DNA of 64,000 bases from an uncultured Actinomycetota bacterium (GTDB lineage: Bacteria; Actinomycetota; Acidimicrobiia; Spongiisociales; UBA4744): contig CAVRPP010000003.1 in the NCBI GenBank assembly GCA_963723165.1, positions 413,717 to 477,716 on the forward strand, in the 5' to 3' direction. Positions 31,100-33,833 of the stretch are shown piece after piece; the stretch's first letter is position 1; the number at the start of each line of letters is the position of its first letter. The position numbers were made by a program, and so were the translations under genes. The notes beneath the pieces are model-generated. The model worked only from the letters and a program-made list of their open reading frames with translations. It did no database searches and was not told where the DNA came from.

Positions 31100-31305
31100 G
31101 GTCCCCGAGTGTAGGAAGCGCTCGACTCTTCGGGTTCACGAACACGATTGGGGGGCCGCCCGCCTCGGATCGCTGGTGCTCCCGCCCAATCGCAAAACGG
31201 ATCCACTCGGTGACCGATGCCTCTATGCCCCGGAAGTCCATTGGCATACGGTTGTCGTACGGAACGCCGACCGACCCGTTTCACTGGTAAAGCACGGAGG
31301 GCCGC

Positions 31306-31779
31306 GTGTCGGTACAAGACACGTACATCGACTCGTTCACCGAGTTTGTGGAGAGCGCAGAACCGAGGTTGCGGCGGGCCCTGGTGGCTCGTTACGGCTA
31401 CCAGGAAGGCAGAGAAGCGGTGGCAGAGGCCCTCGCCTATGCATGGGAGCACTGGGAGCGGGTCGCCGGTATGGAAAACCCGGTTGGCTACCTCTACCGA
31501 GTGGGACGCACCCGGGGAACCTGGGGATTTCGGCGACCGGTGCAACTCCCCCGCGCGGAGGCTTCGGCCGACCCGTCCTGGTTCGAGCCGGCGCTCCCCG
31601 CGGCAGTTGAGCACCTCCCGAGCAAACAACGGACCGCCGTGATGCTCGTCAAAGCCCACGGCTACACGTACGACGAAGCCGCCGACGTCATGGGCATTGC
31701 CCGGACCTCGGTTCAGAAACATGTTGAGCGGGCCCTGCAGAAACTCCGCAAAACCCTTGAGGTGACAAGCGATGCATGA
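31306..31779 (+). CDS. ECF-type RNA polymerase sigma factor
   Basis: GTG start 5 nt after GGAGG. Region 2 (YLYRVGRTR) and region 4 HTH (SKQRTAVMLVKAHGYTYDEAADVMGIARTSVQKHVERALQKLR) are present. Confidence 0.7.
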   Translation: MSVQDTYIDSFTEFVESAEPRLRRALVARYGYQEGREAVAEALAYAWEHWERVAGMENPVGYLYRVGRTRGTWGFRRPVQLPRAEASADPSWFEPALPAAVEHLPSKQRTAVMLVKAHGYTYDEAADVMGIARTSVQKHVERALQKLRKTLEVTSDA

Positions 31780-33238
31780 CCTTGACGATCAACTCCGCGA
31801 GTTCGGTTCATTCGTAGATGACGCCGTCGAAACCGTGCGAGCGACGGAGGTCACGATCCCTCACGCCACGCCGGTTCACCAACCGCCGCGGCACCGCCTA
31901 GCGATCGCCGGCGCAGCCGCCGCCGTGGTCGTGCTATTCATCGCTGCCGCGGTTGTGCTTGGCCCCTTCGGGTCGGAAGCGCCCTATGTGGAGGAACCGA
32001 TCACGGCTTCTATCACAACCACCACGAGCGAGGCTGCGGCTCCGGCATCGCCGGCGATGTCGTGGACCCGCGTCGAGTCGGATGCGTTCGGTGGTTCCGA
32101 CGACCAGTTGATCAGAGACATCGCGATCGGCGGACCCGGGTTGGTGGCCGTCGGAGCAGACGGCTCGGGTGGCGATCTGGATGCCGCCGTGTGGTACTCG
32201 ACCGACGGGCGCGTTTGGACGAGAGTCCCGCACGACGAGCTGGTCTTCGGAGGACCCGGAGACCAATACCCGATGGCAGTGGCGGCAGGCGGGCCGGGGT
32301 TCGTGGCTGTAGGAGATGACAGCACGCCGGATGGAACAGCCGGCATCACGGCCGTTTGGACCTCTGAGGATGGGATCACCTGGAGCCGAGTTCTCCACGA
32401 CGAAAGTGCTTTCGGCGGCGAGGAACAAGTCAACGTCTTCATGAAGGATGTCACCGCTTTCGGGTCGGGTCTCGTGGCCGTGGGGTTGGAATGGAGGGAC
32501 AGCCAGGCAGACGCGGTGGCTTGGACCTCTCCCGACGGGATCATCTGGGAGCGAGTCCCGCCCAACGAGACGGTATTCGGTGGGCCCCACGATCAGGCCA
32601 TGTGGGCAGTGGTGCCAGCCGGACCCGGACTGGTAGCGGTCGGACAAGGCGGTAACATCTTCAACGCTGGCCCCGACCAACCGGCGGCCGTTTGGGTGTC
32701 GACCGACGGGCGCGACTGGTCCCGGGTGCCCGACCAGGCAGCGCTCCTCAGCGGATTCTCACAGCAAGGTGGCGAAGGCCCTGCAGGGTTCACCGGGGAT
32801 TGGGCCCGCATGGACGATGTGGCGATCGGCGGTTCCGGCGTTGTGGCGGTTGGCCGAGTCGGCAGATGTGAGGTTCAGTGCGATGAAGACGGCGCCGCCT
32901 GGACCTCCACCGACGGTATCACCTGGCAACGGAGCCTCGTCGAAACAGTCGACGGTGTCCGAATCGACGACATGTGGGCGGTGGCCACCCTCGATGATGT
33001 GCAAGTCGGTGTCGGCAACGGCTCGGACAGCAACGGGGAATTCGGACCAGCCGTGGCATGGACATCGAACGACGGAGGCGACACCTGGAGTCGAGTTCCC
33101 CACAGCGGCACCACCTTTGGAAAGATCTCCGAAGGGCCCAACTTAATGTTTGCTGCGGTCGAGTTCGGACCCGATCTGATCGTGGTGGGGAGTTGGGGAT
33201 CGAATGCCGCGGTGTGGATAGCAACCATCGAAGAGTGA
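31772..33238 (+). CDS. Putative anti-sigma factor: single-pass membrane protein with an extracytoplasmic BNR (Asp-box) repeat beta-propeller-like domain
   Basis: Start overlaps the sigma gene stop (ATGCATGA). A TM helix at residues ~52-75. There are at least 7 repeats of the S-x-D-G-x-x-W-x-R-V type (YSTDGRVWTRV, TSEDGITWSRV, TSPDGIIWERV, VSTDGRDWSRV, TSTDGITWQRS, TSNDGGDTWSRV). Confidence 0.55.
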   Translation: MHDLDDQLREFGSFVDDAVETVRATEVTIPHATPVHQPPRHRLAIAGAAAAVVVLFIAAAVVLGPFGSEAPYVEEPITASITTTTSEAAAPASPAMSWTRVESDAFGGSDDQLIRDIAIGGPGLVAVGADGSGGDLDAAVWYSTDGRVWTRVPHDELVFGGPGDQYPMAVAAGGPGFVAVGDDSTPDGTAGITAVWTSEDGITWSRVLHDESAFGGEEQVNVFMKDVTAFGSGLVAVGLEWRDSQADAVAWTSPDGIIWERVPPNETVFGGPHDQAMWAVVPAGPGLVAVGQGGNIFNAGPDQPAAVWVSTDGRDWSRVPDQAALLSGFSQQGGEGPAGFTGDWARMDDVAIGGSGVVAVGRVGRCEVQCDEDGAAWTSTDGITWQRSLVETVDGVRIDDMWAVATLDDVQVGVGNGSDSNGEFGPAVAWTSNDGGDTWSRVPHSGTTFGKISEGPNLMFAAVEFGPDLIVVGSWGSNAAVWIATIEE

Positions 33239-33263
33239 GTGGCCCCCAAGAAGGAGGGCAACG

Positions 33264-33833
33264 ATGAAGAAACTGATGATGATGCTGGTAGTTATCGCAC
33301 TGCTGATGTCGTTTCCGGTTGCGGCGGTGGCAAAGAAACCGGCACAACCGCCGGGCCAGGAGCCGTTCCCAGGTCTGACATGTCAGGCGTGGTTCGAGTC
33401 TCATGATGATACCTTGTGGCAAGTTGGCATCCCAGGCGATTTCCCAGTCGACGACGGCGATTTCCGGGTGACCTTGACCCCGGCTCAACCTGCAGCGTGC
33501 ATAGATGTGACATCAGCAGTGGCAGGTGTGTGGAATTTCGAGATTGATGCTGTAAAGGTGGCGTCGTTCAACATGCAGATCAAGGACAGCGTTCCGGGCG
33601 ACATGTGCTGGCGTGACGCGTGGAGTAACAAGAAGGCGAACCTCCCCGACTTGCTGAGCACGCCCGAGATACCCATAGCAACGATCAACGCCTGCCCAGG
33701 AGATGACTTCACAGACGGTGGCTATGCCGAGCCCAAACCAAGCATCGACCACCCCCTGGTCTTTGGGGTGGCCTACTCCCCGGAGAGGCGCGCCGAAAAC
33801 AGCAGCCTGACTATCACCGTGACTCTTCCGTAA
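33264..33833 (+). CDS. Secreted hypothetical protein (cleavable signal peptide; locally lower GC)
   Basis: MKKLMMMLVVIALLMSFPVAAVA signal peptide. 4 Cys residues. No family recognised. Confidence 0.5.
   Translation: MKKLMMMLVVIALLMSFPVAAVAKKPAQPPGQEPFPGLTCQAWFESHDDTLWQVGIPGDFPVDDGDFRVTLTPAQPAACIDVTSAVAGVWNFEIDAVKVASFNMQIKDSVPGDMCWRDAWSNKKANLPDLLSTPEIPIATINACPGDDFTDGGYAEPKPSIDHPLVFGVAYSPERRAENSSLTITVTLP

Follow-up and report, generated by a model that had tools for sequence, protein, structure and literature searches.

ECF sigma/anti-sigma pairs are a major mechanism of bacterial signaling, and most groups have no known sensor domain or signal. In the Escherichia coli rpoE-rseA-rseB operon (σE / RseA / RseB), which is autoregulated by its own sigma, an ECF sigma is followed by a single-pass, N-in anti-sigma factor and an exported protein, RseB, that binds the anti-sigma factor's extracytoplasmic domain and modulates its proteolysis. 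Here, we describe an Acidimicrobiia locus whose three products (ORF1, ORF2 and ORF3) follow the same order, and for which we propose the same autoregulation from a conserved upstream motif. RseA, however, has a class I four-helix domain of ~90 aa and a small unstructured periplasmic domain, whereas ORF2 has 41 cytoplasmic residues and a 390-aa propeller; ORF3 resembles an RseB-like modulator in its position and predicted export signal but has no detectable sequence or fold similarity to RseB.

Other described systems share individual features with the locus. Class II anti-sigma factors contact σ4 and σ2 through a cytoplasmic helical segment of <50 aa (PMC7406223). The 41-aa segment of ORF2 is of class II size, as in CnrY, which acts with CnrH in Cupriavidus metallidurans; yet no sequence similarity to CnrY was detected, the ORF2 segment has a single confidently predicted helix, and CnrY, whose periplasmic part is tiny, works with CnrX as sensor, whereas in ORF2 a large putative sensor domain belongs to the protein itself. 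Clostridium thermocellum SigI/RsgI, as described in one report (PMC10328401), are polysaccharide-sensing pairs whose anti-sigma factor bears an extracellular binding domain, and like our system they comprise multiple paralogous pairs per genome, with a single-pass anti-sigma factor and a modular extracellular binding domain; in both, pairs exchange their sensor domains as modules. In contrast, σI lies outside the ECF sigmas, RsgI brings conserved domains of its own, N-terminal and periplasmic autoproteolytic, and RsgI sensors are CBMs with known glycan ligands, while no ligand is indicated for the ORF2 propeller. Bacteroides hybrid two-component sensors with periplasmic β-propellers (e.g. PDB 3ott) differ in their output, a histidine kinase and response regulator rather than a sigma factor, and their propellers belong to the Reg_prop family, with no sequence relationship to ORF2. 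DUF6242/BamH-type Bacteroidota propellers (PDB 9his_H, 9hjm_H) provide the best PDB sequence match to ORF2 (E 5e-4, ~27 repeat-motif residues) and, with Asp-box propellers, appear among its Foldseek fold matches, but the likeness is confined to the W-x-S-x-D-G-x-x-W repeat, with ORF2 below the Pfam threshold, and those proteins are outer-membrane BAM accessory lipoproteins whereas ORF2 is membrane-anchored in a monoderm. Finally, ECF219, ECF221 and ECF222 are Actinobacteria-specific groups listed with uncharacterised "putative anti-σ factors" in the ECF reclassification (Casas-Pastor et al. 2021, PMC7826278); they share with our locus an actinobacterial ECF sigma and a transmembrane protein at +1, and the absence of σ2.1 that the same paper reports for some ECF219 subgroups fits the short ORF1 sigma with its poorly recognised σ2. 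The main text of that paper makes no mention of propellers, BNR domains or Acidimicrobiia, and our literature search found no paper joining anti-sigma factor, BNR and ECF.

The locus is uncharacterised yet recognisable as a variation on the theme of ECF sigma and anti-sigma factors. Its three genes form one operon, encoding an ECF-type sigma, a membrane propeller protein and a small secreted protein (Table 1). The original prediction, made from the letters of the window (the whole 64-kb stretch of DNA analysed), had the sigma gene stop overlapping the ORF2 start, and this is so: the TGA at 31777-31779 and the ATG at 31772 share 8 nt inside ATGCATGA. ORF2 and ORF3 are 25 nt apart, and a strong ribosome-binding site, AAGGAGG, lies within this gap; neither a promoter-like site nor a terminator was found between the two genes with the motif PWM or in promoter/terminator scans. 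Between 31000 and 34200, no σ70-type promoter was found, and the single site resembling an intrinsic terminator lies on the wrong strand, inside ORF3. An Rfam scan of the whole window found nothing.

Table 1. Features of the three-gene operon and its upstream region (positions in the window)
Feature	Position	Strand	Basis or detail
Bipartite motif, candidate autoregulated promoter	31251-31293	+	family conservation and PWM
Box 1, GTTGTCGTACG	31251-31261	+	conserved upstream of family sigma genes
Box 2, CGTTTCACTGGTAAAGC	31277-31293	+	conserved upstream of family sigma genes
Shine-Dalgarno-like GGAGGG, 5' of sigma GTG	31295-31300	+	read from sequence
ORF1, sigma gene	31306-31779	+	157 aa, GTG start
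ORF1 product: ECF-type sigma, clear σ4, divergent σ2	31306-31779	+	Pfam, NCBIfam and PDB sequence matches
ORF2, membrane protein	31772-33238	+	488 aa
ORF2 cytoplasmic N-terminus, proposed sigma-binding segment (aa 1-41)	31772-31894	+	AF2, family motif
ORF2 transmembrane helix (aa 42-63), N-in	31895-31960	+	hydropathy, AF2, charges
ORF2 Thr/Ala/Pro-rich extracytoplasmic linker (aa 64-95)	31961-32056	+	AF2, low pLDDT
ORF2 seven-bladed Asp-box-type β-propeller (aa 96-488) and stop	32057-33238	+	AF2 model
ORF3 ribosome-binding site AAGGAGG, 6 nt before ATG	33251-33257	+	read from sequence
ORF3, secreted protein	33264-33833	+	189 aa
ORF3 signal peptide (aa 1-23), MKKLMMMLVVIALLMSFPVAAVA	33264-33332	+	hydropathy 2.69; site between AVA and KK
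ORF3 mature part: Pro-rich N-terminus, then jelly-roll-like β-sandwich	33333-33833	+	AF2

ORF1 is an ECF-type sigma factor, much as had been predicted. Pfam recognises its σ4 through Sigma70_r4_2 (1.4e-15; 57.1 bits, cutoff 25.7) and Sigma70_r4 (41.4 bits, cutoff 24.1), and the closest PDB sequences are the ECF sigmas SigR, SigE and SigH, with the σ4 region aligning. Among the ECF models of NCBIfam, TIGR02983 aligns residues 9-152 with positions 6-159 of 162, scoring 66 bits where the cutoff is 141, and TIGR02937 (sigma70-ECF) scores 42.8, only 0.1 bit short of its cutoff of 42.9. The Pfam scan gave no Sigma70_r2 (σ2) match; the sigma family has a strongly conserved σ2-like block, EALAYGWEHWDRV..M.NP.GYLY.VGR, which ~35 residues join to σ4 in a two-domain protein that lacks σ1.1 and σ3.

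The search for an ECF-type promoter that the original prediction called for yielded a conserved motif 5' of the sigma gene, with neither textbook ECF spacing nor a site before ORF3. This bipartite motif lies 13-55 nt upstream of the gene, and both boxes, spaced 31-34 nt apart, occur in 18 of the 19 family sigma upstream regions. When a PWM is derived from 16 loci that include neither the window nor its near-identical ortholog, its top match over both strands of the whole window falls at this very motif (score 22.8, against maxima of 12.6-18.2 in a set of only 10 mononucleotide shuffles). The spacing of the boxes is at odds with the textbook ECF -35/-10 layout, and we rejected a textbook GGAAC-N16/17-CGT promoter since GGAAC is present, yet only 11 nt from CGTT. 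The candidate promoter at 31251-31293 probably drives the operon.

ORF2 is a single-pass membrane protein, as originally proposed: it has one strong hydrophobic segment at residues ~43-63 (Kyte-Doolittle 2.86), where AF2 also models a helix (42-63), and the flanks show a positive-inside pattern, R/H/R preceding the helix and acidic residues coming after it. The following linker is predicted to be disordered (pLDDT <50 at residues 64-86) and varies in length among homologs. On the cytoplasmic side, AF2 models a helix at residues 3-18 and a low-confidence helix of four residues at 24-27; the first carries a motif, (D/E)L..Q(L/I/V)R.(Y/F), that is common to 20 partners of this sigma type. ORF2 has both the +1 position and the transmembrane helix by which a putative anti-σ factor is recognised in the ECF reclassification (PMC7826278). 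The class I anti-sigma domain is N-terminal, has four helices and spans about 101 ± 33 aa (PMC7406223), and the 41-aa cytoplasmic part of ORF2 is too short to be of this class (ZAS, RskA, RseA and RsiW types). No anti-sigma model of Pfam or NCBIfam, including zf-HC2 and RskA, matches ORF2 at E ≤ 1, and its sequence, read directly, has no HxxxCxxC motif.

Two observations connect ORF2 to its sigma factor. The sigma and propeller genes overlap, by 4-17 nt, in 34 of 34 pairs from related loci (19/19 in the first set). Over 33 pairs, moreover, similarity in the first 30 residues of the propeller protein correlates with similarity of the sigma factors (Spearman 0.55; partial correlation controlled for the propeller 0.55, a value that 0 of 2000 permutations reached), and shows no such relation to similarity of the propellers themselves (Spearman -0.02). 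At L083, a syntenic locus, identity is 57% for the propeller but only 22% for the sigma, and the N-terminus has been replaced; propeller paralogs without a sigma gene lack an ORF2-type N-terminal segment. Part of this co-variation could stem from mere proximity on the DNA, as recombination with breakpoints in the linker would keep the sigma gene and the N-terminal segment together. The conserved gene overlap and the co-variation make an anti-sigma role for ORF2 plausible, with its N-terminus as the putative sigma-binding element.

The extracytoplasmic domain of ORF2 had been expected to form a propeller, and AF2 models it as seven blades, with pLDDT about 90, in a circle of four-stranded antiparallel sheets; the top Foldseek fold matches of the model are all propellers. 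The "at least 7" repeats of the original prediction come down to six S-x-D-G motifs, of which five are S-x-D-G-x-x-W, one residue under the canonical Asp-box, S-x-D-x-G-x-T-W, and one is a canonical SNDGGDTW (residue 432), while a degenerate "SWTRV" strand at residues 96-100, without S-x-D-G, closes blade 7. Nor did the expected BNR assignment hold, as Pfam BNR (PF02012), BNR_2 (PF13088) and sialidase models have no match in ORF2 at E ≤ 1. Since sialidase catalytic motifs are missing as well, the suggestion that the propeller binds glycans is a guess; neither sequence nor genomic context offered a clue to the ligand. PF19755 (DUF6242) has no Pfam match in ORF2, and PF25852 (DUF6242_C) has faint precomputed matches in ORF2 homologs. 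We rejected Pfam/NCBIfam matches of ORF2 and ORF3 to AP5B1_barrel, BamI (17.8 bits) and hit_Bd0108 as sub-threshold noise, and those of homologs to F5_F8_type_C, DUF4096, MMU163 and DUF7354 as short spurious stretches over the repeat motif. An index search returned ~3000 homologs of the propeller. The retrieved loci contain 98 propeller ORFs, of which 31 are sigma-coupled and 58 have no upstream sigma gene, about half of the latter with lipoprotein-like N-termini; with about two-thirds of its paralogs uncoupled, the propeller is therefore not an intrinsically signaling domain.

ORF3 was correctly predicted to be a secreted protein with four Cys, judging by its hydrophobic, signal-like N-terminus and cleavage-type site between AVA and KK. 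The signal peptide, which contains no lipobox Cys, is kept in homologs. The family alignment retains each of the four Cys positions, although fragmentary sequences in two rows leave only two of these positions formally invariant throughout. AF2 models nine β-strands with a pLDDT of 75 overall and 82-94 in the core. ORF3 matches no Pfam or NCBIfam family, and Foldseek against the PDB gave no match at E ≤ 0.001; fold matches to picornavirus VP1, YPM, PliG and collagen-binding domains are generically jelly-roll/CBM-like, and we assign no family from them. Profile matches to giant cadherin-like/Ig-like proteins (P0209, P0276) were rejected as partial and summed over repeats. The ORF3 family comprises 149 representative clusters.

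Genes of this family directly follow sigma-propeller pairs in loci L001, L003, L083 (twice) and L087, and on three short contigs, L085, L086 and L088, they come directly after a propeller gene; homologs stand in the equivalent position in L001, L003, L083/84, L085 and L086. In at least six divergent cassettes, an ORF3-family gene follows the sigma-propeller pair. One of these is related at the profile level only (HHalign 98.5%, E 1.5e-15), and others are 32-35% identical beside propellers that are only 27-39% identical. The trio recurs in related genomes, often in tandem, with runs of two or three cassettes in L002, L083 and L087. The original prediction had allowed that orthologs might show the downstream gene to be unrelated to the sigma operon; the opposite was found, and the gene is a conserved member of the cassette.

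We propose, with a probability of roughly 0.6, that the operon is driven by the upstream motif and encodes a sigma factor, a type II membrane anti-sigma factor with a non-catalytic propeller sensor, and a secreted protein of the same module. In this model, the 41-residue cytoplasmic N-terminus of ORF2, with its one amphipathic helix, would bind and sequester the sigma factor, while the seven-bladed, non-catalytic Asp-box propeller would act as the extracytoplasmic sensor and ORF3 would be the module's secreted, disulfide-bonded β-sandwich protein. A signal at the cell surface, which could be either a ligand bound by the propeller or an altered interaction of the propeller with secreted ORF3, would free the sigma factor, most likely through destabilisation or proteolysis of ORF2, and the freed sigma would transcribe its own operon. 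ORF3 may serve as a co-sensor or modulator, like RseB for RseA, or may be a plain output of the regulon. A bolder extension, which we regard as unlikely, makes the trio a self-contained, fast-diversifying surface-signaling cassette of Acidimicrobiia: ORF3 would be the propeller's co-receptor or ligand, the ~16-residue helix would define a new minimal class of ECF anti-sigma factors, and tandem arrays with swapping of "sigma + helix" against "propeller + secreted protein" would equip every cell with its own set of orthogonal channels.

The most serious competitor to an anti-sigma role, doubtful in our view but less so than this extension, casts ORF2 as a sigma-dependent surface protein with a structural, adhesive or binding function and ORF3 as a second exported product, with the sigma factor regulated at another point or purely at the level of transcription. 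A sigma's own targets are common members of ECF operons, the 58 sigma-free homologs, about half of them with lipoprotein-like N-termini, indicate that the propeller works outside signaling, and the cytoplasmic segment of ORF2 is very short and matched no anti-sigma model. A mere membrane anchor would not, however, be expected to carry a helix motif that is specific to the sigma type and co-varies with the sigma factor, and both the overlap in every pair and the lack of the N-terminal segment in sigma-free paralogs also speak for the anti-sigma reading. It is far less probable that ORF2 works as an enzyme tethered to the membrane, be it a sialidase, some other glycoside hydrolase or lyase, or a catalyst of the CylK type, with a gene that follows a sigma gene by chance. 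Asp-box motifs are typical of sialidases and GH74/GH93 enzymes, and a PDB profile search with ORF2 reaches sialidases at E 0.02-0.4. Sialidases, though, have six blades, a FRIP motif, an Arg triad and a Tyr/Glu nucleophile pair, whereas the ORF2 model has seven blades, no FRIP motif was found in ORF2, and the Pfam models of such enzymes did not match. All 49 invariant columns across 25 homologs are repeat-structural W/S/D/G/V/A residues plus the R of the repeated W-x-R-V, and nothing in them looks like a single active site; among the fold matches, identity to any enzyme is 8-14%. The N-terminal domain of CylK has no counterpart in ORF2.

The remaining alternative concerns ORF3, which the original prediction took for a possible horizontally acquired effector; that it is a recent foreign gene functionally unrelated to the sigma operon now seems the least probable reading of all. 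Its GC content is indeed low (57.7% against 62.6% for the window, in the lowest 2.4% of 570-nt windows), but its GC3 of 0.69, at the low end, is inside the range of the other genes (0.68-0.81). GC falls furthest in the codons of the signal peptide (48%), and as the deficit falls on codon position 1 and the signal peptide, it reflects the amino-acid composition of ORF3. Neither are its Lys codons AT-rich, as had been stated: three AAA and six AAG are in the same proportion as in 23 reference genes of the window (29% AAA). Homologs in other cassettes equal or exceed their neighbours in GC3 (0.76-0.82), and the synteny of ORF3-family genes directly 3' of sigma-propeller pairs or propellers in several divergent cassettes contradicts horizontal acquisition and largely refutes this alternative.

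What this analysis offers at present is a well-delimited hypothesis rather than a discovery. It delimits a large family, with many copies per genome, in the poorly studied and mostly uncultured Acidimicrobiia, and the family is unusual in its very short putative anti-sigma segment, its regular seven-bladed Asp-box propeller and its co-inherited secreted partner. Should the minimal helix prove to inhibit the sigma factor, a compact type of anti-sigma factor would be gained, which would be useful for understanding sigma-anti-sigma specificity and for the design of synthetic switches that are orthogonal to one another. Should ORF3 prove to bind the propeller, the family would reveal, in monoderm bacteria, a new principle of modulation akin to that of RseB.

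All three open reading frames lie on the plus strand exactly where the original prediction had placed them (see table), and the stop codon of the sigma factor gene does overlap the start of ORF2, the gene for the propeller membrane protein, within ATGCATGA. ORF3, which encodes a small secreted protein, follows after a 25-nt gap and has an AAGGAGG ribosome-binding site; the three proteins come from one 505,787-bp NCBI/ENA contig, and none bears a name. In the family, 18 of 19 sigma genes are preceded by two boxes, cTTGTSGTA and a CTTTtAtGGGTGAGAG-like sequence, lying 31-34 nt apart, a spacing that differs from the textbook ECF -35/-10 layout, with the second box ending about 12-47 nt ahead of the sigma start codon. 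A two-box position weight matrix built from 16 loci, with the window and a near-identical ortholog left out, finds its top match on both strands of the whole 64-kb window directly upstream of the sigma gene. This site scores 22.8, and ten shuffles peaked at 12.6-18.2; the next-ranked matches (18.2 and 18.1) fall inside the shuffle range. Because no such site stands ahead of ORF3, and neither a σ70-like promoter nor a terminator was found between the operon genes, the arrangement fits a single auto-regulated transcript for all three genes, with a candidate promoter at 31251-31293.

Coordinates of the operon, its surroundings and related cassettes (L-numbers, related loci from other genomes)
Feature	Location	Strand	Remarks
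MFS_3 transporter and intergenic region	window:29459-31305		546 aa; 206 bp
Sigma gene	31306-31779	+	157 aa, GTG start
ORF2	31772-33238	+	488 aa
ORF3	33264-33833	+	189 aa
Histidine kinase and response-regulator protein	window:36373-38377	-	292 aa; 332 aa
Tandem cassette array	L002:5535-10632		two pairs
Tandem cassette array	L083:1-6525 (same in L084)		two full cassettes and a sigma fragment
Tandem cassette array	L087:1-6258		three consecutive cassettes
Split ORF3 homolog	L002:10116-10632		70-aa and 52-aa genes
Lipoprotein third gene	L005:5539-6027		SnoaL_2 (NTF2-like), Pfam 3.9e-10
Lipoprotein third gene	L041:1136-1570		SnoaL_2 (NTF2-like), Pfam 2.4e-07
Lipoprotein third gene	L007:2290-2916		no Pfam match
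Lipoprotein third gene	L024:5292-5786		other cassettes: also L027, L035, L047

From its sequence, we take the first protein of the operon to be an ECF-type sigma factor with a divergent σ2 region. Its σ4 region matches Pfam Sigma70_r4_2 (1.4e-15), σ2 has no Pfam Sigma70_r2 match, and the closest solved sequences, the ECF sigmas SigR, SigE and SigH, are related via σ4 only. The NCBIfam model for the actinobacterial SigE family (TIGR02983) spans the whole protein at 66 bits, under its cutoff, and the general ECF model (TIGR02937) reaches 42.8 against a cutoff of 42.9; with this near miss and the missing Sigma70_r2 match, automated pipelines may annotate σ4 alone or overlook the protein as a sigma factor. 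A σ2-like block, EALAYGWEHWDRV..M.NP.GYLY.VGR, is strongly conserved among sixteen members of the family. Fragments from JGI in the same cluster carry the name 'sigma24 family protein'.

The structural observation made earlier for ORF2 is largely right. The protein has a single strongly hydrophobic segment at residues 43-63, and AlphaFold2 run with 25 homologs (mean pLDDT 82.8, pTM 0.77) models residues 3-18 as a helix and 42-63 as a transmembrane helix. In the same model a Thr/Ala/Pro linker (64-95) is disordered and residues 96-488 fold into seven blades of four strands each (pLDDT about 90), with blade 7 completed by strand 96-100. The charges (R/H/R ahead of the transmembrane segment and acidic residues behind it) indicate an N-in orientation, and thus a propeller outside the cell. 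At least seven S-x-D-G-type repeats had been claimed; the repeats are real, but their count is six, five S-x-D-G-x-x-W and one canonical S-x-D-x-G-x-T-W box, with an N-terminal 'SWTRV' as a degenerate seventh element. Mean identity between blades is 39%, and PHDE-type loops form a ring between them.

The proposed glycan-sensing function, on the other hand, finds no support: ORF2 has no Pfam BNR or sialidase match at E <= 1 and is not a demonstrable member of those families, no FRIP motif was found in it, and no glycan-utilisation genes lie near the operon. Since all 49 invariant columns of the family alignment are repeat-structural W/S/D/G/V/A or the R of W-x-R-V, and since FRIP is missing, the domain is a regular, probably non-catalytic Asp-box-type seven-bladed propeller. 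Precomputed annotations of most homologs (P0008, P0020 and others) list PF25852 (DUF6242_C), mostly as 'faint'. The operon's neighbours encode housekeeping functions (succinyl-CoA ligase β, a B12-binding domain protein, transaldolase, an MFS_3 transporter and PcrA), along with a histidine kinase and a response regulator, and synteny is kept in L002 and L083/84. The transporter ('transmembrane secretion effector') is transcribed divergently from the sigma operon, a neighbourhood kept in L002, where an extra 218-aa gene missing from the window stands between transporter and sigma gene. The histidine kinase and the response-regulator protein lie just past PcrA; the kinase has HisKA and HATPase_c domains and no more than a short hydrophobic stretch at its N-terminus.

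The indexed search returned about 3000 relatives of ORF2, and those with a name come almost all from Acidimicrobiia MAGs; among species-representative genomes, 80 loci were located, many of them sharing one MAG. Among 98 propeller ORFs in loci L001-L086, 31 are sigma-coupled, 58 sigma-free and 9 truncated. As so few are coupled, and as 27 of the 58 sigma-free forms have lipobox-like N-termini, the propeller is an exported module of general use in Acidimicrobiia, with a subset of copies recruited into sigma signalling. The sigma-free forms have no N-terminal cytoplasmic segment, which makes this segment specific to the sigma-coupled ones. Cassettes of sigma and propeller genes, with or without a gene for a small exported protein, also occur in tandem arrays (see table).

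The segment bears on whether ORF2 acts as an anti-sigma factor, a reading that is plausible and now better supported, if indirectly, than when it was first proposed. In 34 of 34 recovered sigma-propeller pairs (19 of 19 in the first set), the partner's start overlaps the sigma stop by 4-17 nt. The helix motif (D/E)L..Q(L/I/V)R.(Y/F) is common to twenty partners of sigmas of the same type as the window's, and partners of other ECF types carry different N-termini. Across 33 pairs, similarity in the first 30 residues of the partner follows sigma similarity (Spearman 0.55, and again 0.55 as a partial correlation with the propeller controlled for; reached in 0 of 2000 label permutations) and not propeller similarity (-0.02). 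Between sigma and propeller similarity there is next to no correlation (0.11). Linkage alone could explain part of this co-variation, since the N-terminus is encoded right next to the sigma gene. The pattern is plainest in L083. When L083:3931-6525 is compared with window:31306-33833, the propellers are 57% and the ORF3 homologs 46% identical, the sigmas only 22%, and the N-terminal 30 residues of the L083 propeller protein are unrelated to those of ORF2, at the same PcrA-adjacent position. Here, it seems, a 'sigma + N-terminal helix' module was swapped against a conserved 'propeller + ORF3' module. Class I anti-sigma domains comprise four helices and about 101 aa, and class II (CnrY-like) domains two helices in under 50 aa (PMC7406223). 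A class I domain is ruled out in ORF2, whose cytoplasmic part is only 41 aa; its size fits class II, with one helix alone confidently predicted. Encoded at +1 and equipped with a transmembrane helix, ORF2 would count as a 'putative anti-σ factor' under the operational criteria of the ECF reclassification (PMC7826278).

ORF3 had been proposed to be a horizontally acquired effector of low GC content. Its GC is indeed low (57.7%, where the window as a whole has 62.6%; only 2.4% of stretches of equal size lie as low), but its GC3 of 0.69 is ordinary, other genes spanning 0.68-0.81. The supposedly AT-rich Lys codons are not so (AAA:AAG 3:6, on a par with the window's 29% AAA), and GC falls to 48% in the codons of the signal peptide; the dip is thus real but modest, and is mostly a matter of amino-acid composition. 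A foreign origin is rejected, given the GC3 of the homologs in their own genomes (0.76-0.82) and the family's conserved position after propeller genes. ORF3-family genes directly follow the propeller gene in L001 and L003 (41-42% identity), in L083/L084 and the short contig L085 (P0128, 46%) and in L086 (P0121, 94%). In L002 the homolog after the second tandem pair is split across frames, either a pseudogene or an indel error of long-read assembly. A different sigma-propeller pair in L083 is followed by a 195-aa relative recognised at profile level only (HHalign 98.5%, E 1.5e-15), and L087 and L088 carry relatives 32-35% identical behind propellers only 27-39% identical to ORF2. This distribution makes ORF3 a conserved partner within the cassette.

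The predicted signal peptide and four cysteines of ORF3 are both present; the signal-like segment ends AVA|KK, and the four Cys positions are conserved throughout the family alignment. ORF3 matches no Pfam or NCBIfam family. AlphaFold2 models it as a β-sandwich (pLDDT 75, core 82-94), for which Foldseek returned generic jelly-roll/CBM-like folds only, none at E <= 0.001. Its profile matches 149 clusters among 1.84 billion representatives (E <= 1e-3), almost all of about 110-250 aa, the exceptions being some fragments and two surface proteins of giant size. The latter, P0209 (2848 aa) and P0276 (1192 aa), match partially in multiple stretches and are built of cadherin-like (Cadherin_4, FG-GAP) or bacterial Ig-like (Big_13, Big_6) repeats. 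There are hints that part of ORF3 resembles cadherin/Ig-like β-sandwich repeats, too weak for homology.

In other paralogous cassettes the third gene encodes a lipoprotein outside the ORF3 family (see table). SnoaL-like domains are otherwise known from some ECF sigmas, to which they are fused as regulatory extensions. Since these cassettes carry a different exported third gene, with SnoaL_2 in the L005 and L041 copies, an exported third component seems to be a general trait. That ORF3 binds the membrane-anchored propeller is an attractive possibility, because a secreted protein in a monoderm diffuses off unless held at the surface.

The operon is like rpoE-rseA-rseB in gene order and topology, and its cytoplasmic ORF2 segment is similar in size to those of class II anti-sigmas (CnrY). 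Its many paralogous pairs, with their modular sensors outside the cell, recall SigI/RsgI, and its use of a propeller as transmembrane sensor recalls Bacteroides hybrid two-component systems. ORF2 itself fails membership of both the class I anti-sigma domains and the BNR/sialidase families. We found no description of ECF anti-sigma factors with a propeller or BNR ectodomain in the literature, our coverage of which is incomplete. The putative minimal anti-sigma helix, the putative propeller-ORF3 partnership and the modular, tandemly amplified cassettes are all worth following.
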